Below, one piece after another: positions 963 to 11,294 of a stretch of DNA of 16,377 nt. The DNA is taken from assembly GCA_963766735.1 (NCBI GenBank), contig CAVYBU010000010.1, positions 1 to 16,377 on the forward strand. The letters run 5' to 3'. Every line of letters starts with the position of its first letter. Position 1 is the first letter of the stretch. Below the pieces are notes generated by a model. It was not told where the DNA came from and did not search any database. It saw nothing but the letters and a program-made list of their open reading frames with translations. Source of the stretch: an uncultured Chloroflexia bacterium. GTDB lineage: Bacteria > Chloroflexota > Limnocylindria > Limnocylindrales > CSP1-4. The position numbers and the translations under genes were made by a program.

Positions 963-1281
963 TCCCAGATAAGTCGCGGGTGAGCGGCGCGCGGCACCAT
1001 GCCGCGCATGCCTGCGACGACCCATGGCTCCGACCGCCACGGAGCCAGATCCAACCACCCAGGGCCAACCGCCCGGGTTCCCGGGCACCCGCCGCTGGGC
1101 GGCCGGGTTGACGCTGCCGATCCCGCATCCCGTATCGTTCGCGCCATCAGACGGCGCCGCCACCGGCAGCAGTTCCCGGCCGAACCCGTCGACGTCAGGG
1201 CACGAGGGACATGCGCTGGTCGCGGTCGGGCCTGGGATCGCAGGTTCAATGCTGTTCGCGGGACCGATCGGGCGGCTGGGG

Positions 1282-4200
1282 ATGAACCCGCTGCCGATCC
1301 AGCCGGCGAAGATCCACCCGCCGCTGCTCCGCCACGATGTCCTCTCCCGAGAGCGCCTCAACGGCTGGCTGGACAACGCGGCGAACGGGCGCGTCGCGCT
1401 GGTCATCGCCGAGGCCGGGTTCGGCAAGACCACGTTCCTTGCGGACTGGGCGCGCCACACCCGACGCGCAACGGCGTGGTACCGCCTGGAACCGGATGAC
1501 CGGGACTGGCTCGCCTTCATCAGGCATCTGGTCGCAAGCGGCCGGGAGATCGACCCCGGGTTCGCTCCGGATACCTACGACCTGCTGGCCGCACTGGGGC
1601 CAGGTGGTCCGTCCAGGGATGACCTGATCGTCAGCGTCGCCCAGGAGATGGCCGAGCTCGCATCGTCGCTGCCCAACGGCCTGAGCCTCCTGTTCGACGA
1701 CTACCACTCCGTCGACGGCAGCCCCGAGACCGAGCCCGTCATGAAGGCCCTGGTCGATCGAACGGGACCCGAATTCTCCCTGGTCATCGCGTCCCGGGCG
1801 GCGCCATCGCTCGCCCTGGGCAGGCTGCGCGCCCGCGGCGCCCTCTCGCGGATCGACGGCGACGGCCTCTGTTTCGACGTCCCCGAGACGGAGCGCCTCT
1901 TCCGGGATGCCTACCACCAGCCCCTGGACGCGGACGTGGTGGTGGACCTGATCGCCCGGACGGAAGGCTGGGCCGCGCTCCTGTCGCTGGTCCACACGAG
2001 TATTGACGAAGAGCGGAACTCGGACGCCCGGACCCTTGTCGGCCAACTGAGTGCATCTCGGGGTGATCTGTACGACTTCCTCGCTGAGGAGGTTATCGAA
2101 GGCCTTCCGAGGAGACTCGAGGAGTTCGTGATTCGAGTCTCGATCCTGACGGCAGTTGCCCCGGAGCGCGCGGCTCTGGTCGATGCCGGACCCCGCACCG
2201 AGATTACGAGTCTCATTGAACAGGCCGAGGGACTTGGTCTTCTCATGAGGCCAGACCGTGATCAGCCTCACCGGTTCCATCCACTCGTCCGGGACTTCCT
2301 TCGATCACGCCTTGAAGATCAGGTAGGACTCCCGGAGATTAGGGCCCGGCATCGGGCGGTTGGCGCGGCTCTCGTCGGAGTCGACTGGGGTGCGGCCGCG
2401 TGGCACTTCGCCCAAGCGGGCGACTCGGACGAAGCCGGGCGTGTGATCGATGACGCGATACCAGAAATCATGGCGTCGGGTCAGTTCGATCTCGCAGTGC
2501 CCTACCTAGATGGTTCCGCTGGCGCGACTGATAGGCCTGGGGCGCTCGTTCTCCGGAGTCGTCTCGAGTTCGCCAGGGGGAATCTGGAGAGGGCGAAGGC
2601 CCTGGCGGAGTCCGCCATCCGCGAAAGCCGTGGAGGCAGTCTCGCTGGATCGAGTCTGCTCAACCTTGCCTCACTGCTAGGAGTTGCTGGCTCCGAGCAA
2701 TCCGCGGTCGAGTTCGCGAGGCAGGCCATGACGTGTGAACTCACACCCTCGCAGCAATTGATCGCCAAGGCCACCATCGCACTCAGGGAGGCTGCGGATG
2801 AGGGCGACCTCGAGGCGATCGCAGAAGACTTGCGGATCCTCGCCGCTCAGCAATCACATGATGGCCATCGGCGACACAGCGGGATCTCCAACCTCAACCT
2901 CGCCGCCGCCCTCCTTTGGATTGGCGATGCTCAAGGTTCGCTTGCAGCAGCCAATCGTGCCGACAGCGACCTCGCCGGATCTGCTGCAACAAGCGCGGAG
3001 CGCGTCGCAGCTCTCGCTGCCCGCGCTCGGGCATTCGCCCATTTGGGTCGCGTCGACGAGGCCGAGCGGATCCTGAACGCTGGCGGTTCACTGCCCTCTG
3101 CGCTCAGCCGAGATGAGGCGAGCGTCGAGTTGGCCTCGATCCTCAGCGATTTCGGTTCCGCCGAGAGTGCCGCTAGTGCTCTTGCCCGCATCGATCCAGA
3201 CCACCTGATCCCCGGCTTTCGCGCAATCTGGGTGATGGCGCGCGGCCACATCGCCATTCGGACGGGGGAAACCGACCTAATCGCGCAGATGTGCAAAGAA
3301 CTCTCCGAGGAACCGTGCCGCGACTGCGCCGGGAAGCTCCGGACCGAGTTGCTACGGGCACGATCAGCGATCGCCCTCGGATCCCAGGAGGCTGTTTCGA
3401 ACATACGGGAGCTCGGGAGGATTGCGGATGCACAGCGATCACGAGTTGGACGGCTGTGGGCGGATCTGCTCCTGAGCGTTGCGTGTCCGGGGCCCATCCA
3501 CGCGGAAGTGCTTCGAGTCGGCCCAGACGAGGGCTACTGTCTCTCGATGCTTGCCGACGAGCTCAGTCGCAATCTGCACCGAATGTCCGATGAAGCTAGA
3601 GCCCGTGTCGAGGCCGAGGCTCGGGTGGTGCCCGAGCGATGGCGAGAGGCACTTCGTCAGGCAACAGCTGAAGGAGGTCCCTCAAGCTCCGAGGGCGCAC
3701 GCCTACTTTCCGTCGTGGGATCCTCAGACGACGCCGACTACCTCCGATCGATCGCTTCGACGTGCAAGGCATTTCGGCCGTACGCGGTATCCATCACGCG
3801 AAGGCTCGCGCCTACTGTCTATGTCGAGGATCTGGGCGCGGTGCGAATCCGGCTGGGCGACTCGCAGGTCGTCCGAGTGCGGAGGAGGAAGGTTCTCGGG
3901 CTAGCGTGCTTTCTATCGTCGCGGCAGGGCATGGCCTCGACTCGGGATGAAGCACTCGACGCGCTCTGGCCGGAACTCGGGCCAGACACGGCAGCCAACT
4001 CGCTTCACCAGACCATCTTCTACCTGCGTCGCGTCTTTGAGCCTGGGTACCGCGAGGGCCTGAGCCCTGGGTACGTGGTCTTCGACGGCGAGGTCGTCAG
4101 CCTCAGTTCAGACTTGGTAGACAGTGCGAGTCGGCGATGCTGGAAGACCTTGGGCCAGTACTCCGCCGACAGCGAGGAGGGCGCGACTCGCCTTCTGCGG

Positions 4201-4521
4201 TTGTATCGGGGCAAGTACGCCCTCGATTTCGCCTATGAGGACTGGGCCTCGTCCTATCGAGAGAACCTGCACGCGGCAGTTCTGGCACGCGTGGAGGCAG
4301 CGATGGAGGCGAGTGCGTCGGCAGGCAGCACGGATGCTGCGATCGGGCTTGCCCATTCCCTGATGGCGATTGATCCCGCCGCTGATGGGATCGAACTGGC
4401 GTTGGTGAGGATCTACAAGTCGAGCAGACGACATGCCGCGGCTGCCGAGCAGTACGCACACTACGCCTCAGTCGTGCGCGATGAACTTGGCGCAGAGCCC
4501 CCGAGCTTCGATGAGATCTGA
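1282..4521 (+). CDS. MalT-like STAND ATPase / helical-repeat (TPR-like) / C-terminal wHTH-BTAD transcriptional regulator
   Basis: PAKIHPP...RERL, Walker A AEAGFGKTT, Walker B LLFDDYH, TEGWAA, LYDFLAEEV and RFHPLVRDFL are MalT-like. The C-terminal RDEALDALWPE...NSLHQTIFYLRRVFEP...LYRGKYALDFAYEDW...ELGAEP is SARP/BTAD-like. The start may be further upstream (in-frame ATGs at 1024 and 1249). Confidence 0.88.
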   Translation: MNPLPIQPAKIHPPLLRHDVLSRERLNGWLDNAANGRVALVIAEAGFGKTTFLADWARHTRRATAWYRLEPDDRDWLAFIRHLVASGREIDPGFAPDTYDLLAALGPGGPSRDDLIVSVAQEMAELASSLPNGLSLLFDDYHSVDGSPETEPVMKALVDRTGPEFSLVIASRAAPSLALGRLRARGALSRIDGDGLCFDVPETERLFRDAYHQPLDADVVVDLIARTEGWAALLSLVHTSIDEERNSDARTLVGQLSASRGDLYDFLAEEVIEGLPRRLEEFVIRVSILTAVAPERAALVDAGPRTEITSLIEQAEGLGLLMRPDRDQPHRFHPLVRDFLRSRLEDQVGLPEIRARHRAVGAALVGVDWGAAAWHFAQAGDSDEAGRVIDDAIPEIMASGQFDLAVPYLDGSAGATDRPGALVLRSRLEFARGNLERAKALAESAIRESRGGSLAGSSLLNLASLLGVAGSEQSAVEFARQAMTCELTPSQQLIAKATIALREAADEGDLEAIAEDLRILAAQQSHDGHRRHSGISNLNLAAALLWIGDAQGSLAAANRADSDLAGSAATSAERVAALAARARAFAHLGRVDEAERILNAGGSLPSALSRDEASVELASILSDFGSAESAASALARIDPDHLIPGFRAIWVMARGHIAIRTGETDLIAQMCKELSEEPCRDCAGKLRTELLRARSAIALGSQEAVSNIRELGRIADAQRSRVGRLWADLLLSVACPGPIHAEVLRVGPDEGYCLSMLADELSRNLHRMSDEARARVEAEARVVPERWREALRQATAEGGPSSSEGARLLSVVGSSDDADYLRSIASTCKAFRPYAVSITRRLAPTVYVEDLGAVRIRLGDSQVVRVRRRKVLGLACFLSSRQGMASTRDEALDALWPELGPDTAANSLHQTIFYLRRVFEPGYREGLSPGYVVFDGEVVSLSSDLVDSASRRCWKTLGQYSADSEEGATRLLRLYRGKYALDFAYEDWASSYRENLHAAVLARVEAAMEASASAGSTDAAIGLAHSLMAIDPAADGIELALVRIYKSSRRHAAAAEQYAHYASVVRDELGAEPPSFDEI

Positions 4522-4589
4522 CCCGAATTCTGGAATGGACCAGGCTGCGACGTGCCGAGCGGCCCGGTGGGCATAGGTAGGGTTGCGTA

Positions 4590-4619
4590 TTGACCGGTGT
4601 AGTCGGCCGTGCATATAGT
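4590..4619 (+). promoter_or_regulatory. sigma70/SigA-type promoter TTGACC-N18-TATAGT
   Basis: TTGACC at 4590-4595 and TATAGT at 4614-4619 each differ from consensus by one base. They lie directly upstream of the riboswitch. Confidence 0.7.
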
Positions 4620-4659
4620 CCGGCCCTGCACCAGTACTTTCGTACGGTGCACCAAGGAA

Positions 4660-4737
4660 ACGCTTGGACGCGCTGATGCCACCACCTGAAATGGGCACTT
4701 AGGGTGGAGGCGGAGCGAGTAGTGCAACCGACCGGCT
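4660..4737 (+). ncRNA. c-di-GMP-II riboswitch aptamer (Rfam RF01786-like)
   Basis: TTGGACGCGC-TGATG-CCACCACCTGAAA-TGGGCACTT-AGGGTGGAGGC-GGAG-CG-AGTAGTGCAACCGACC carries the class II hallmarks: kink-turn TGA.../GGAG, TGGGCACTT loop, pseudoknot GCACT (4695-4699)/AGTGC (4721-4725) and 3' GCAACCGACC. It lies upstream of a c-di-GMP phosphodiesterase gene. Confidence 0.9.
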
Positions 4738-4762
4738 TTCGAGTCAGGTCGGTTTTCGTGTT
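4726..4762 (+). terminator. Intrinsic terminator-like expression platform overlapping the aptamer 3' end
   Basis: AACCGACC-GGCT-TTCG-AGTC-A-GGTCGGTT stem with a UUCG loop, ending in a U-rich tract (TTTTCGTGTT). Confidence 0.75.
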
Positions 4763-4799
4763 CCTCGACAGGACACGGAGGCCGCAAGGAGGTACGAGC

Positions 4800-4832
4800 G
4801 TGGCACCGAGCAAGGGCCTCAAGGGCTGGTAG
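4800..4832 (+). CDS. Micro-ORF, 10 aa MAPSKGLKGW
   Basis: Near-perfect SD AAGGAGGT (4786-4793), 6 nt spacer, GTG start and TAG stop. The C-terminus LKGW mirrors LKGF of the next ORF. Confidence 0.6.
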   Translation: MAPSKGLKGW

Positions 4833-4858
4833 GACCAGGATCGCGGGAGGATCGACCG

Positions 4859-4948
4859 ATGAAGGATCGCCTCATGCGACTCCTGGCCACTCTCGGCGCA
4901 GTCGCCGCATTGGCGCTCGCCGGAGGCGCGTCGCTAAAGGGCTTCTAG
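4859..4948 (+). CDS. Small peptide precursor, 29 aa MKDRLMRLLATLGAVAALALAGGASLKGF (putative signalling peptide)
   Basis: SD GGGAGG (4845-4850) 8 nt before the ATG. It has a signal-peptide-like basic N-region and hydrophobic core, a small-residue GGA site and a short tail SLKGF. Confidence 0.8.
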   Translation: MKDRLMRLLATLGAVAALALAGGASLKGF

Positions 4949-4961
4949 AAGCAGGCAAGGG

Positions 4962-5033
4962 CCTCAGTACACAAGTCCTCTTCACCCGTTGTAGGTGGAA
5001 GGGGCTAGAGTCCCTACCGTTCGGGAACTGAGG
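4962..5033 (+). promoter_or_regulatory. Predicted three-way-junction RNA that pairs over the HD-GYP RBS
   Basis: CCTCAGT (4962-4968) pairs with ACTGAGG (5027-5033, includes the SD). Internal hairpins at 4974-5006 and TCCC/GGGA at 5011-5026. Confidence 0.45.
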
Positions 5034-5037
5034 ACGA

Positions 5038-6454
5038 ATGCCGACAAAGCTGAAGCTCTACATTATTGGAGTCGTGGCAACGAGCGCTATCGCGCTCGTT
5101 GCTACGACTCGTTTGATTCCAGTCGAGGACGGGATTGCCCTGACTGTCGCGCCGTTCGGAATCTCTCTCGACTCAGGCAGGCCTCGCATTCTGGTGTGCG
5201 GTGACCCTGATCGCGTCCGCGCTTCCCGTCCGAATGCCTCGCGGAACAATGGTAGGCGTTTCGATCGCGCCGCTGATTGCGGCCACGGTCCTGGGCGGTC
5301 CGACCGCCGGAGCCTGGGTCGCGCTCATCGGGACGACGGAGGTGCGTGAGCTGCGCGGCCGTGTTCCGTGGTACGGCTCGCTGGCCAACCACGCCGGGCT
5401 GATGATCCCCGCGATCGTGGCTGGCATGGTCATGCGCGTACTCGGCGTCCCGGGGAGCGAGGAGTACACGATCACCTTCATCGCGGCTCTGATCGGTGCG
5501 GCAGCCTTCTTCCTGGTCAACGCGACGCTCACCGCTGCTGCGGTGGCTCTCCAAACTGAGCAGCCATTTCGCAGCGTGTTGCTGGGCGACGCCAAGGTCT
5601 TCGCCACGAACCTCCTTGGGCTTGCCCCGCTCGCTTGGCTCATGGCCCAGATGTACGAGGTGGCTTGGTGGGCCAGCTCTGCTGTTCGCCGTTCCGCTCT
5701 ACACGACGCGGCTCGCCTACCACAACTTCATCGAGATGCGCGAGATGTTCACCCAGACCATCGGTGCGCTGGCAGAGGCCGTGGACAAACGCGACCCGTA
5801 CACCGAGCAAGCATTCGCGTCGGGTCAAGGAGATCGCGCGGCGACATCGGTCGGGTCATGCGCCTGGGGGAGAGTGACCTCGAGGCCCTGGAGTGGGGCG
5901 GCCTGCTCCACGACGTCGGCAAGATCGGCGTGCGGGACGCGGTGCTGCTCAAGCAGGACAAGCTCAACAAGGAGGAGCGGGCGCAGATGAACGCGCACCC
6001 GGTCCTCGGTGCGGAGATCATCGCGCCGGTGACGCGACTGTCCCGGGAGCTGCCGATCATCCGCCACCACCACGAGTGGTACAACGGCTCGGGGTACCCG
6101 GACCGGCTCATCGGGGACGAGATCCCGCTGCTGGCACGCATCCTTCACGTGGCGGACGCCTTCGAGGCGATGACCGCCGCCCGGCCGTACCGGATGACGC
6201 CGCTGACCTCGGAGCAGGCACTGGGCGAGCTGCGGAAGTTCGCCGGCGTCCAGTTCGATCCCAAGGTGGTGGACGCCTTCGTGAAGACGGACTGGGCCCA
6301 GGACGTGGCCGACCCGGGCCGGACGCTGCAGGCGCGACCGATCCCGCTGATCTCGCAGCACGCGAACCGGACTGCCAACGCCGTCTGCCACGCCCGACGC
6401 AACCTGAGCACTTCCGCCTCGCCGGAGCAGCCTCGGCGGCGGTCGCACTCGTAG
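5038..6454 (+). CDS. Membrane-anchored HD-GYP c-di-GMP phosphodiesterase with multi-TM N-terminal sensor region (frameshifted in this sequence)
   Basis: Joined across shifts at about 5180, 5675, 5810 and 5840: MPTKLKLYIIGVV...multiple TM helices...EMFTQTIGALAEAVDKRDPYT-HSRRV...LLHDVGKIG...HHHEWYNGSGYP...ADAFEAMTAARPYR...QFDPKVVDAF. The exact C-terminal end is uncertain. Confidence 0.9.
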
Positions 6455-6517: not shown

Positions 6518-8680
6518 ATGCTGATCGGCGGTATCACGCTCGGGCTGGTGCTCGGCCTGCTCCTGGGCGGGCGCCTGGAGAACCTGGCCAACATCCGTCT
6601 GCGCTTCCTGCCGCTGCTGTTCGTGGCGGTGATCCTCCGGTTTGCGACGGAAGCGCTGCTCGGGATGGGCGTCGAGGTCGTGGACGCGCTGCGTGTGCCG
6701 CTGCTCGGGGGCGCCTACGGGCTCCTGCTCTTCACTCTCTGGCACAACCGCTCGTACCCGGGCCTGGCGCTGGCGTTCGTCGGGATCGCGTCCAACACCC
6801 TGGTGATCGTGTGGAACGGAGGCTGGATGCCGGTGTGGCAACCCGCCTACGACGCGTCCGGGCTGGCGGGACCGCTCTACTCGCAGCTCCACTTCCCGAT
6901 CAGTGGCACCGGCGCCGAGTTCCTGCTCCACCTGGGCCCGCTGGCGGACGTCATCCCGTTCCCTATCCCGCCGCTGCAGAACGTCGCCTCGGTCGGTGAC
7001 CTGTTCCTGACGGCCGGCCTGGCGTTCTTCCTGTTCGCCACCCTGATGAGAACGCCGGCCGAGACGCAGACGGCGATCGACGAGGCGAAGACGGGTCGCT
7101 ACCTGGGCCTCGTCGGGCACGGCCCGCCTGCCGAGGCGTGGCGAGGCCGCGGGGGACGCGGCGGGCCTGGGCGTCCGCCCGGGAACCGGCCTGACGCCCG
7201 GCCTGCAGGAGGCCGCGGCCCTCGAACGCCCGCTGATGATGGGCGCCGGCGGCATCGGGCATGGCATCGCCGTCCGGGTCGCTCCATTGCGCCAGAGGGA
7301 GCCACCGCCGGAGCCGGAGTCGCGGCCACCACCGCCACCGCCTTCCCCGGTGGCATCGCTGTCCCCCGCCCGCGTCCTCGCCGGCGGGCGCTCGGCCCGC
7401 GCGTCCGCCGCCACCCGTACGTGCGCCTGGCGCTCAACGGCTCGTTCTCGGCGCTGTGGGTGGGCCAGGTGATCAGCCTGTTCGGGGATCGCGTCAACCA
7501 GATCGCCCTGGGCGCCTTCGTCTACGAGCTGACCGACTCGCCGTTCGCCGTGGCGCTGACCTTCTTCATGGGGACGATCCCCAACCTGGTCTTCTCGCCG
7601 ATCGCCGGGGCCTACGTGGACCGCTGGGACAAGAAGCAGGTGCTGGTGGTCTCGGACATCCTCCGGGCGGCGCTGACCCTGCTCGTGCCGGTGGCCGTCC
7701 TGATCAACGTCTGGCTGGCGTACCCGCTGGTCTTCCTGATCACGACGGTCTCGATCTTCTTCCGGCCGGCGCGAGTTGCGATCCTGCCGCGCCTGGTTCC
7801 CAAGCGGGACCTGCTCTCCGCCAACTCCGCGATGTGGGTGGGCGAGACGCTGGCCGACGTCATCAACTACCCGATCGCCGGCCTGTTCGTGGTCTTCCTG
7901 GCTGGATCGCTGCCGATCGCGTTCTGGTTCGATGCCGCCACCTACCTGGTCTCGGCCGCCCTGCTGGCCTCGATCGCGATGCCGCCGCTGGCCCGCCGAA
8001 TCCGCGGCACGGACGCCGCCGATGGTCCGGAGGGAGCGAACGAGGGCGAGGGCGGGACAGACTCCCAGACCTCGATCCTCACCGACATGAAGGTGGGATG
8101 GGCATTCCTCCGCCACGAGACCGTCCTGCTGGCGAACACGATCCAGGGGACGGCCGGCCAGTTCGCGGTCGGCATCGTCACGGTGTCCGCCATCATCCTG
8201 GCGAGGCAGATCACGGGTTCGGATGGCAACGAGTACCGCGCGACCTACGCGTTCATGGAGACGGCCATCGGCCTCGGCAACCTGATGGGCGGCTTCGCCC
8301 TGGGCATGGTGGCCACGCGTGTCCGCAAGGGGCGGCTGGTGATCGCCGCCTACACGGTCTTCGGCGTGCTGATCTTCCTGGTCGGCCTGACAGACTCGAT
8401 CCCGCTGATCCTGGGGCTGCTGTTCGGGGTCGGCGTGGCGAACATGGCGTTCGTCATCCCCAGCCAGACGATGTTCCAGGAGCGCACGCCGCCGGAGCTG
8501 ATGGGGCGCGTGGTCAGCCTCCGGTTTGCCCTCGTGTTCGGCGGTATGTCCGTGGCGATGGCCGTGGGCGGCCTCCTGGTGGGGGTCTTCGGGCCGAGCC
8601 CGGTGATCGCGGCGGCCGGGCTGCTGTCGATCGTCGCCGGCCTCGCGGGGCTGGGCGTCAAGGCGCTGCGGGAGGCGTGA
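6518..8680 (+). CDS. DUF5317 domain fused to an MFS transporter (MFS_3/DHA3-like)
   Basis: The N-terminal ~180 aa carry DUF5317 motifs (GGRLENL..IRLR, SNTLVIVWNGGWMPV, LADVIP...SVGD). The C-terminal part is MFS-like (LWVGQVISLFGD, AGAYVDRWDKKQVLVVSDILR, FQERTPPELMGRV). The linker at ~7120-7290 probably has compensating indels. Confidence 0.85.
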   Translation: MLIGGITLGLVLGLLLGGRLENLANIRLRFLPLLFVAVILRFATEALLGMGVEVVDALRVPLLGGAYGLLLFTLWHNRSYPGLALAFVGIASNTLVIVWNGGWMPVWQPAYDASGLAGPLYSQLHFPISGTGAEFLLHLGPLADVIPFPIPPLQNVASVGDLFLTAGLAFFLFATLMRTPAETQTAIDEAKTGRYLGLVGHGPPAEAWRGRGGRGGPGRPPGNRPDARPAGGRGPRTPADDGRRRHRAWHRRPGRSIAPEGATAGAGVAATTATAFPGGIAVPRPRPRRRALGPRVRRHPYVRLALNGSFSALWVGQVISLFGDRVNQIALGAFVYELTDSPFAVALTFFMGTIPNLVFSPIAGAYVDRWDKKQVLVVSDILRAALTLLVPVAVLINVWLAYPLVFLITTVSIFFRPARVAILPRLVPKRDLLSANSAMWVGETLADVINYPIAGLFVVFLAGSLPIAFWFDAATYLVSAALLASIAMPPLARRIRGTDAADGPEGANEGEGGTDSQTSILTDMKVGWAFLRHETVLLANTIQGTAGQFAVGIVTVSAIILARQITGSDGNEYRATYAFMETAIGLGNLMGGFALGMVATRVRKGRLVIAAYTVFGVLIFLVGLTDSIPLILGLLFGVGVANMAFVIPSQTMFQERTPPELMGRVVSLRFALVFGGMSVAMAVGGLLVGVFGPSPVIAAAGLLSIVAGLAGLGVKALREA

Positions 8681-9453: not shown

Positions 9454-10135
9454 ATGGACGAGCCCCGGGCGCGCACGAGCGAGGCCCGGGCGCGCACGAG
9501 CGAGGCCCGGGCGCGGATGGTCGCGGACCAGCTCCTCGGCCGCGACATCCGGGACGAGCGGGTCCTCAAGGCCATGGACACCGTCCCGCGGGAGGCGTTC
9601 GTGCCGGCGAAGGAACGCGACTATGCGTACCTCGATGGCCCGCTGGCGATCGGTGCCGGCCAGACGATCAGCCAGCCGTACATGGTGGCTCGTATGGCGG
9701 AGCTGCTCCACGTGGCGCGCGGCGACCGTGTCCTGGAGGTCGGTACCGGCTCCGGGTACGCCGCGGCGGTGCTGGCGGAGATCGGGCTGCCGCGTGACGA
9801 CGATCGAGCGGGAGCCGGGACTGGCGGCGGAGGCGCGCGCACGCCTGGCGGACCTGGGCTACGCGGACCGCGTGGACGTGCGCACGGGCGACGGGAGCCT
9901 GGGCCTGCCCGAGGAGGCACCGTGGGACGGCATCGTGGTGGCCGCGGCCGCCCCGGAGATCCCGGACGCCCTGCGCGAGCAGCTGGGCGACGGGCGGCGG
10001 CTGGTGATCCCGGTCGGATCGCGCCGGCAGCAGCAGCTCATGGTGGTGGAGCGGCACGGCGCCGAGTGGCAGGAGCACTCGGACGGGGCCTGCGTCTTCG
10101 TGCCGCTGATCGGCGGCGGGGGGTGGCAGCGGTGA
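9454..10135 (+). CDS. pcm: Protein-L-isoaspartate O-methyltransferase (frameshift ~9787)
   Basis: [48 protein letters not shown], then in the second frame [21 protein letters not shown]...GRRLVIPVG...CVFVPL. Confidence 0.93.
9464..9515 (+). repeat. 21-nt tandem repeat (~2.5 copies) at the pcm 5' end
   Basis: CCCGGGCGCGCACGAGCGAGG x2 plus CCCGGGCGCG, encoding RARTSEA repeats. Confidence 0.85.
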
Positions 10136-10201
10136 CGAGGTACCTCGCAGACGTGACCACGGGCCGGTGAACCGACCTTTCGGGAGCCGATCGCGCCCGG
10201 A

Positions 10202-10219
10202 TATACTCGGCCGGCCATG
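10202..10219 (+). promoter_or_regulatory. Probable leaderless or near-leaderless promoter (-10 TATACT)
   Basis: TATACT at 10202-10207 lies 9 nt upstream of ATG 10217, with no SD sequence between them. Confidence 0.55.
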
Positions 10220-11294
10220 ACCCATGTGTTCGTTGCCCCCCACCCGGACGACGTTGCGCTCTCGTGCGGCGGGCTGATCGCCAGCCTGCGCGAGCTCGGC
10301 CAGAACGTCACGATCCTGACGCTCTACTCCGGCTCCGGGCAGCGCTGACCAGCTCACGCCGTACCAGCGCGAGGCACTGGGCTTCGGGTCCAAGGCGGTC
10401 TGGCCGGTCAGCGAGGCGTTCAACCGCGCCCACCTGCAGGCCGACTTCCCCGAGGACGCCGCTGCCGCCCCCTGGCAGGCGACGAAGGAGGGCCTGGACG
10501 CCACGCAGGGCGAGGCGGACGCCGCCGCCAAGCGGTTCTGGCAGCGCTCCTCCTGGTACCGCCGGGCGAGGATCCACAACGAGTCCCTGGCGGGCCAGCC
10601 GGTCATCGACGACCTGGCCACGCAGGGCGCGGTCATGACGTCCGAGCGGACGGACGCGGCCGCCGCGGGCGACACCATGGCCGAGCGGCGTCTGGAGGAC
10701 GAGCGATACGCCGCCTTCGCCGAGGTCTCGGTCGTCTGGCTGGACCTCCCCGACGCGGTCTTCCGCGGCTACGAGGGCGACGACCAGCTCCTGGGCACGC
10801 CGCGTGCGGACGATCCGGCGCCGGTGGACCTGCTCCGCCGCGAGATCGCGCGCCTGGAGCCGTCCCGCATCTACCTGCCGCTGGGCATCGGCGGCCACGT
10901 TGACCACCAGCTGGCCCGCGACGCCGGGATCGCGCTCATGCACGACGCCCAGGCCTGGGTGATGCCCGGCCCGGACAACGCGGACATGACCGTCTTCTAC
11001 GAGGACTTCCCCTACGCGTGGTGGGAGGACTTCGGCCGCCTGGAAGACCTGCCTCCGGACGCGCTGGCCGGGCTGCCGGAGGGCGTCTCGCTGACCGCGG
11101 ACTTCGGGGACGTGGGCGACGTGCTGGAGCGCAAGATCCAGGGGATCCTGCTGTACGAGAGCCAGATCGAGCGGCTGTTCGACGACAAGGCCGCTGCCGC
11201 GGCCGCCGTGCGTGCGTACGCGGCGCGGGTGGCGGACATCGGCTCCGTCGCGAGCGGCGCCGCCGAGCGGTACTGGGTCACGACGCCGGCCTGA
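10217..11294 (+). CDS. PIG-L/LmbE family N-acetylglucosaminyl deacetylase (frameshift ~10340)
   Basis: MTHVFVAPHPDDVALSCGG, RRLED, LDLPDAVFRGY, PLGIGGHVDH, FYEDFPY, K...YESQ and ERYW motifs. Confidence 0.9.

Follow-up and report, generated by a model that had tools for sequence, protein, structure and literature searches.

A class II c-di-GMP riboswitch with the architecture of a transcriptional ON switch in the leader of a conserved HD-GYP operon of Chloroflexota

Class II c-di-GMP riboswitches have been described mostly from Clostridia, and the appearance of such an element in the leader of an operon from a Chloroflexota-type genome raises the questions of whether it is a genuine member of the class, in which direction it would switch and what it would control. 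A sequence-only reading of the window, by which we mean the whole stretch of 16,377 nt that was analysed, had placed the element at 4660–4762 and proposed a transcriptional ON switch with negative feedback on c-di-GMP. The named relatives of the genome are Chloroflexota, and neither Clostridia nor Actinobacteria, Limnocylindrales being an order within that phylum. An element is present where it had been placed, but the full unit is larger and extends from the promoter at 4590–4619 to the end of a second hairpin at 4780 (Table 1). We consider it probable, taking the account as a whole, that this is a class II ON switch in the leader of a conserved operon, with feedback exerted through an HD-GYP phosphodiesterase.

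Table 1. Features of the riboswitch leader and the downstream genes in the window
Feature	Coordinates	Strand	Basis or remark
Sigma-70-type promoter, TTGACC, 18-nt spacer, TATAGT	4590..4619	+	10/12 consensus matches
Palindrome or 5' leader hairpin, GTAC-4-nt loop-GTAC core, between -10 box and aptamer	4628..4650	+	Conserved inverted repeat
c-di-GMP-II aptamer	4657..4740	+	RF01786, 59.5 bits; paired columns over 67 sequences
Aptamer P1	4664-4667 with 4732-4735	+	RF01786 alignment; 67-sequence pair count
Aptamer P2	4669-4671 with 4715-4717	+	CGC with GCG
Aptamer P3	4678-4686 with 4703-4711	+	67-sequence pair count
Aptamer pseudoknot (predicted)	4695-4698 with 4722-4725	+	GCAC complementary to GUGC
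Terminator hairpin, 5' arm being aptamer 3' core and P1 3' strand	4726..4754	+	Scan, folds, conservation in 67 loci
U-rich tail TTTTCGTGTT	4753..4762	+	U counts in 67 loci
Second hairpin, 5' arm being the U tract, partner CACGGAG	4754..4780	+	Folds in 68 sequences
sORF1, 10 codons, GTG start, TAG stop, peptide end K-G-W	4800..4832	+	AAGGAGG at 4786-4792
sORF2, 29 codons, preceded by GGGAGGA (4845-4851)	4859..4948	+	ORF list, conservation
Structured spacer from sORF2 to HD-GYP start, with TAGAGT	4949..5037	+	Single-sequence folds
Membrane-domain HD-GYP gene, c-di-GMP phosphodiesterase type	5038..6454	+	HD_5, 3.4e-34
Perfect 19-bp hairpin in HD-GYP ORF, codons ~11-24, then GTTTGATTCC	5069..5110	+	Terminator-like in scan
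DUF5317 membrane protein (~6590-7033) and MFS transporter (~7439-8650)	6518..8680	+	Domain matches

When the whole window was compared with Rfam release 15, RF01786 (c-di-GMP-II) was the single family matched at gathering level, at 4657–4740 of the forward strand and over model positions 1–84 of 84 (E = 2.7e-11). The covariance-model comparison that the sequence-only reading had proposed as a check thus came out in its favour, the score of 59.5 bits lying above the gathering score of 53.5 by a modest margin of 6 bits. Around the leader (4560–5060), matches at E ≤ 10 other than RF01786 were restricted to chance-level hits to CRISPR-DR20 (15.6 bits) and MIR2907 (15.5 bits). Every letter of the conserved core UGA, GGAG, AGU and GUGCAACCG.C, including the kink-turn motif, was matched in the RF01786 alignment, and the same kink-turn and core letters are invariant or nearly so in 67 sequences from related loci. 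All highly conserved (upper-case) core positions match outside the P3 loop, where the window has CUGAAAU against the Rfam consensus UgUAUuU and three upper-case U differ. The earlier remark that GGACGC (4666–4671 by a check of the letters) is a 5' junction deviating from GGAAAC, with a possible effect on affinity, did not hold: the Rfam consensus at this place is GGAggC, not GGAAAC, and CGC is the 5' strand of P2, whose pairs are retained in 61–66 of the 67 sequences. Because CGC is a helix strand with a compensating partner, GGACGC offers no basis for an altered affinity. By every sequence-level criterion applied, the window aptamer is a genuine and ordinary member of RF01786, and as such the riboswitch itself adds one more case to an already known class.

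To collect orthologues of the downstream HD-GYP gene, 28 aligned orthologues served as the query against a genome set in which each species is represented once, and the best 80 of 546 relatives were retained. A search of these 80 loci with nhmmer, using window positions 4657–4765 as the query, located the aptamer and hairpin ahead of the HD-GYP orthologue in 67 of them; sufficient upstream DNA is available in 71 loci, and these include all 67. All matches lie on the strand of the HD-GYP gene, beginning approximately 350–410 nt and ending approximately 230–280 nt before its start, and the arrangement as such is placed some 270–380 nt ahead of the gene. Nine of the 13 misses have less than about 310 nt of upstream sequence or lack the 5' end of the gene (L003, L026, L036, L050, L066, L069, L072, L074 and L080), and the remaining four (L065, L068, L070 and L073) gave no match to this query despite ample upstream DNA. 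With the exception of L071 (Dormiibacterota), the riboswitch-bearing loci belong to MAGs whose labels read Chloroflexota or begin with Limnocylindr. Twenty-two of the 23 riboswitch-bearing loci submitted to Rfam passed the gathering score, namely all 20 of a first batch (55.9–72.1 bits) and, in a second, L053 (63.5 bits) and L021 (53.6 bits), L075 being the one that failed. The view that a Clostridia-type switch is notable in a high-GC genome is correct as regards base composition, the window having a G+C content of 69 %, but the switch is less of an oddity than had been suggested, because it is a lineage-wide feature of the Chloroflexota relatives and reaches Rfam's own threshold.

The aptamer helices were further assessed by counting pairs in an alignment of 67 sequences (L028, whose copy is cut by the contig end, being excluded). 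Overall, 96.8 % of 1246 cells were paired and 9 of the 20 pairs showed compensatory change; none of 500 shuffles was as good, and sliding the partner by 1–3 columns left just 22.6–39.3 % of cells paired. The proportion of paired cells was 96.6 % for P1, 97.5 % for P2 and 94.9 % for P3, with compensatory change in eight of nine P3 pairs and one of four P1 pairs and variation on one side only in the three P2 pairs. The pseudoknot strands GCAC and GUGC are complementary in 67 of 67 sequences, and since their four pairs are invariant the alignment is neutral on the pseudoknot. Conserved P1 comprises only 4 bp, UCGG/CCGA, for which the window has UUGG/CCGG with two G-U wobbles where the relatives have U-A and C-G; the riboswitch carries no indel relative to its closest relatives. 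Two candidate pairings around P1 were rejected: the outer pairs that Rfam adds (GAAA/UUUC) are confined to the closest relatives and so are not part of conserved P1, and a 5' 'anti-P1' hairpin, CCAAG/CUUGG (4652–4667), taken from the MFE fold lacks its upstream arm in the relatives and is not a conserved part of the leader. The assignment to class II made from the letters of the window is therefore upheld by an RF01786 score above the gathering score, by gathering-level matches in the relatives and by covarying helices.

The direction of switching turns on the strand AACCGACC (4726–4733), which is common to the 3' core of the aptamer and the left arm of the hairpin that follows, as the sequence-only reading had recognized; the letters, the scan and the folds agree on this. 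A consensus scan of 4300–5400 returned two terminator-like sites against a shuffle mean of 0.6, one of them at 4730–4754 with the tail TTCGTGTTCC. Folded alone, 4720–4765 gave −16.1 kcal/mol (z = −2.44, 1 of 200 shuffles being as good), and the hairpin at 4726–4754 is also present in the MFE fold of 4650–4770. All 67 loci have the hairpin, its energy averaging −15.1 kcal/mol, and 98.8 % of the 735 cells in its 11 pairs are paired in the 67 sequences. None of the 11 pairs changes on both sides in these sequences, so that the support is that of conservation and not of covariation, as is to be expected because the 5' arm consists of the invariant aptamer core and the 3' strand of P1. The 3' arm GGTCGGTT (4747–4754, letters likewise checked) and the U tract lie outside the aptamer and yet are conserved in 67 of 67 loci, the loop varying freely. 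The last two U residues of the stem and the next 8 nt contain between five and eight U in all 67 loci (seven in 35, six in 23, five in 8 and eight in 1), the tract of the window being interrupted (TTTTCGTGTT / UUUUCGUGUU). In sequence, then, the pattern of an intrinsic terminator is present, a G+C-rich hairpin being followed directly by a U-rich tract.

Nearest-neighbour energies were −30.5 kcal/mol for the terminator together with P2 and P3, and −12.8 to −14.8 kcal/mol when P1 was formed instead, as in the aptamer state, with the pseudoknot and the ligand not counted. The terminator state being the more stable, the default fold would be that of termination, and it follows that only a ligand-stabilized tertiary structure could hold the shared strand. 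The proposal that aptamer and terminator exclude each other by way of the shared AACCGACC(GG) strand thus stands on the folds, the energies and the conservation in 67 loci. Class II switches of C. difficile are transcriptional ON switches according to the available text of two reports (PMC11477304, PMC9495366), and the transcriptional ON logic claimed for the window agrees with its architecture and with the C. difficile switches as set out in the first of them. An ON switch in this leader is well supported in silico.

In the mechanism that we propose, a canonical class II riboswitch occupies the 5' leader of a conserved operon, in which transcription would start at about 4626, after the conserved promoter. 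Without ligand, the strand AACCGACCGG(CU) would pair with (AGUC-A-)GGUCGGUU to give an intrinsic terminator, and RNA polymerase would stop in the U-rich tail at approximately 4755–4762. With c-di-GMP bound, the shared strand would be kept in the aptamer as core junction and short P1, no terminator would form and transcription would continue, so that the bound state would be ON. The read-through RNA would carry the two micro-ORFs, one of 10 and one of 29 codons, followed by the gene for a membrane-anchored phosphodiesterase of the HD-GYP type, whereby high c-di-GMP would raise the level of an enzyme predicted to degrade c-di-GMP, giving negative feedback.

The leader in which the switch is embedded is unusually layered: the promoter is followed by a 5' hairpin, by the aptamer with its terminator and by a second hairpin, after which come the two micro-ORFs, a structured spacer and, within the HD-GYP coding sequence, a hairpin that covaries. 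The promoter at 4590–4619 was the sole promoter-like site detected by the consensus scan in 4300–5400 (shuffle mean 0.1), and nearly all of the 64 upstream regions compared, those of the window and 63 loci, show the same hexamers at the same distance. Between it and the aptamer, an inverted repeat of the type TAGTAC-N4-GTACTA occurs at the same place in related loci with a variable loop, and could be either an RNA 5' hairpin or a DNA operator. Of 68 sequences, 67 form the second hairpin, at 4754–4780, with 5 bp or more and −4 kcal/mol or lower; letters of its stem change between loci with retention of pairing (e.g. CGUG/CACG and CGCG/CGCG). It sits just before the ribosome-binding site of sORF1. 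The spacer at 4949–5037 folds in most loci into a long irregular hairpin beginning at the sORF2 stop codon when sequences are folded singly; RNAalifold on a MAFFT alignment gave no consensus structure for it. TAGAGT is conserved within this spacer and could be the −10 box of an internal promoter, the scan of 4300–5400 having returned no promoter-like site there under its criteria. By eye, the end of sORF2 had suggested a long-range pairing with the spacer TAGAGT; this was rejected, as the variants TAAAGT and TACAGT are not compensated.

The two micro-ORFs followed by an HD-GYP protein were correctly named as the downstream genes, as judged from the Pfam HD_5 match and the conservation in 68 sequences. 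Each micro-ORF has a strong Shine–Dalgarno sequence in front of it. sORF1 is present in 64 of the 68 as a frame of 9–11 codons, with a GTG start in 60 of the 64 and a TAG stop in 54; among the 53 copies of ten codons, Lys8 is invariant, Gly9 occurs in 45 and Trp or Phe at position 10 in 52. sORF2 is found in 61 of the 68 and has exactly 29 codons in 60 of those, and its entropies of 0.85, 0.50 and 1.57 at codon positions 1, 2 and 3 constitute a coding signature. Where the sORFs are missed, the reading frames are mostly broken or run together. The predicted sORF2 peptide has a basic N-terminus, a hydrophobic stretch and the C-terminal sequence G-G-A-S-L-K-G-F, and it resembles a signal-peptide-type precursor, the residues at −3 and −1 relative to its last eight being small. 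A C-terminal [K/R]-[G/P]-[W/F]-stop motif is common to sORF1 and sORF2. Neither peptide matched a family in Pfam or NCBIfam, a Pfam match of sORF2 to NAGPA (E = 0.23) being dismissed as noise. A 12-nt direct repeat, GCAAGGGCCTCA, lies at 4810–4821 inside sORF1 and again at 4955–4966 just after sORF2.

The closest relatives of the HD-GYP gene product are intact at 454–460 aa, and the named ones are HD-GYP or HDIG-domain proteins of Chloroflexi or Candidatus Limnocylindrales MAGs. The residues of the HD, HHE and GYP motifs are invariant in 28 relatives, so that the family appears to be catalytically competent. The MASE9 domain reached 23.4 bits in P0002, an intact relative, just under the cut-off of 24.3, and some relatives carry a precomputed PF20972 assignment. 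In the window, four +1 frame changes, near 5161, 5678, 5804 and 5838, interrupt the gene, which runs in frame 1 to ~5160, frame 2 to ~5678, frame 0 to ~5803, frame 1 to ~5838 and then frame 2, so that the start of the HD_5 domain falls in other reading frames; identity to an intact relative is very high inside each piece. Elsewhere in the window at least two further genes have broken frames: a PCMT gene (within 9544–10114) passes from one frame to another at ~9784, and the ORF of a PIG-L deacetylase (10157–10345) covers no more than the first 39 positions of the profile. As such breaks occur window-wide, in HD-GYP, PCMT and PIG-L, we favour indel-type assembly errors as the likelier cause over a specific pseudogene, the alternative being a decaying locus. 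An intact HD-GYP gene in the window presupposes that all four of these changes arose in assembly.

Gene order around the switch is conserved across loci, in the sequence dodecin, 1165-aa MalT/SARP-like regulator, operon, DUF5317 and MFS transporter: the regulator is present in 64 of 80 loci, DUF5317 follows HD-GYP in 76 of 80, and the MFS gene is found in 75 of 80. The regulator of the window (1024–4521) begins with a MalT-like ATPase region and has a BTAD/TPR (SARP-like) part at its C-terminus, and it ends 70 nt before the riboswitch promoter; at ~1980–3700 its third-codon-position GC is unusually low for the genome. The DUF5317 and MFS domains share one uninterrupted frame of 720 codons (6518–8680), which may be a true fusion or an effect of assembly.

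The claim of negative feedback is one that we can endorse only with reservations. It is plausible, and a conserved HD-GYP gene lies downstream, but in the window the frame of that gene is broken four times and a second conserved, terminator-like hairpin falls within its first 25 codons. The comparisons show the identity of the aptamer, the shared strand and the conservation of both folds and of gene order; binding of the ligand, termination, the direction of switching, the activity of the enzyme and the share of HD-GYP message that would pass the hairpin at 5069–5110 are inferred from these, and we regard the feedback as plausible and less secure than the ON logic. It is the simplest reading of the operon, although the principal cargo may be the micro-ORFs.

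The four more distant loci that have ample upstream DNA and gave no nhmmer match are of interest in their own right. L065, L068, L070 and L073 have, at the orthologous position about 200–450 nt upstream of the HD-GYP start, a diverged class-II-like aptamer, which in L070 (5670–5754) scored 30.8 bits against RF01786, far under the gathering score, with changes to the kink-turn and core letters. These loci lack the 3' arm of the terminator, contain between one and three copies of the sORF1 decapeptide, in tandem and in frame, and have an sORF2 that ends Y-R-P-F. Theirs may be a riboswitch of variant specificity that works through another expression platform.

Several other explanations of the switch have to be weighed against this account. 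That the aptamer is a chance resemblance without a functional RNA would find comfort in the 6-bit margin above the gathering score, but the E value, and above all the retention of the element in 67 loci with compensatory helix changes, make this so improbable that we regard it as already refuted. It is very unlikely, if somewhat less so, that the ligand is another cyclic dinucleotide or a linear breakdown product instead of c-di-GMP. Moderately conserved positions of the P3 loop do deviate, CUGAAAU standing for UgUAUuU, and a more diverged aptamer variant occupies the same position in four related loci; the upper-case core outside that loop is nevertheless fully matched, canonical RF01786 outscored the remaining families of its clan, and the gene downstream is of the c-di-GMP phosphodiesterase type. 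We would likewise give little credence to the proposal that 4726–4754 is no terminator and that the switch acts instead at the level of translation, RNA stability or Rho, one conceivable route being the hairpin at 4754–4780 together with the ribosome-binding site of sORF1. The interrupted U tract, its use as the 5' arm of a conserved second hairpin and a terminator stem without covariation speak for this proposal. However, the Shine–Dalgarno sequence of sORF1 (4786–4792) lies outside both the aptamer and the hairpin, in all 67 loci the stem together with the U tract conforms to the pattern of an intrinsic terminator, and published class II switches act by termination, as far as the accessible text of PMC11477304 goes. 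A c-di-GMP-responsive terminator remains the reading that we prefer.

A different kind of alternative accepts the switch as real and ON and concerns its output. The hairpin at 5069–5110 is conserved and covaries strongly: in 71 sequences, 13 of its 15 pairs show compensatory change and 94.1 % of 1064 cells are paired (0 of 500 shuffles as good), with L070 as an exception noted by eye, and 60-nt folds of the region average −35.6 kcal/mol over the same number of sequences. It may be a second, translation-sensitive terminator or attenuator setting the amount of full-length HD-GYP message, and either this hairpin or the spacer TAGAGT could uncouple the enzyme from the riboswitch. The main product might then be a short micro-ORF transcript ending at 5069–5110, with peptides as the output and HD-GYP expressed by regulated read-through or from a start of its own in the spacer. 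The terminator-like scan result, the covariation with a U-rich tail following, the conservation of the micro-ORFs (64 and 61 of 68) with the coding signature of sORF2, and the conserved TAGAGT all speak for such a transcript, but the hairpin lies within a translated region, where ribosomes could melt it, and by the criteria of the scan the spacer contains no promoter-like site; we consider this possible, and clearly the less likely outcome. More doubtful still is an extension in which the riboswitch is the entry gate of a layered peptide-signalling module, c-di-GMP turning on two micro-peptides that would act on or through the membrane-sensor HD-GYP protein encoded on the same transcript, DUF5317 and MFS, and an attenuator at HD-GYP codons 11–24 gating the full-length message. 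The peptides would be a free decapeptide from sORF1 and a signal-peptide-type precursor with an 8-residue tail from sORF2, and if this were true, c-di-GMP inside the cells of Chloroflexota would be tied to a peptide signal that is secreted or resides in the membrane.

Whichever output applies, the switch is a fixed feature of one conserved locus in a widespread, uncultured, high-GC soil and freshwater lineage, and extends the class beyond the Clostridia from which it is mostly known. With the HD-GYP enzyme as its target, it would illustrate cleanly, in a natural setting, how a second messenger can induce the phosphodiesterase that degrades it. In our view the riboswitch itself is of less interest than the micro-ORFs, the possible second attenuator and the variant aptamer, and the variant aptamer and layered leader provide material on micro-peptide function and on the evolution of riboswitch specificity and expression platforms.

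A search of open-access text (by titles, and in part of PMC2864571) returned no report of a c-di-GMP riboswitch in Limnocylindria or Chloroflexi; no report of a c-di-GMP-II aptamer with HD-GYP was evident among the open-access papers listed, and none related to c-di-GMP-II-GAG was found in open-access text. Association of class II switches with c-di-GMP turnover genes is mentioned in the accessible part of PMC12564702. Among known systems, class I (GEMM-I) switches such as Vc2 share the ligand and the general association with c-di-GMP-related genes, but have an unrelated fold, and the window matches RF01786 and not the GEMM model. Upstream of CD3246, a class II aptamer is joined to a group I ribozyme (Lee et al. 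2010, according to the available text of PMC12564702); the aptamer class is the same, whereas the window has no intron and no further Rfam family, and its terminator hairpin directly follows the aptamer. As regards the enzyme, the MASE9-HD-GYP phosphodiesterases (bioRxiv 10.1101/2021.11.05.467447) have, in the text available, an N-terminal multi-pass membrane domain followed by HD-GYP, as here, with MASE9 marginally below the cut-off in the relative P0002; the word riboswitch does not occur in the text of that paper. The closest counterparts are the class II ON switches of the C. difficile type IV pilus, adhesin and cmrRST genes as presented in the accessible text of PMC11477304, which are alike in Rfam family and, under the mechanism proposed here, in a ligand-bound aptamer that blocks a terminator, and which have the same helices and kink-turn motif and the pseudoknot that is predicted for the window. 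They differ from the window in host (Clostridia as against high-GC Chloroflexota-type MAGs) and in cargo, which in C. difficile is adhesins or pili and here is two micro-ORFs and HD-GYP, and the switch of the window is further set apart by its very short P1 of 4 conserved bp and by the extra conserved hairpins before and after it.
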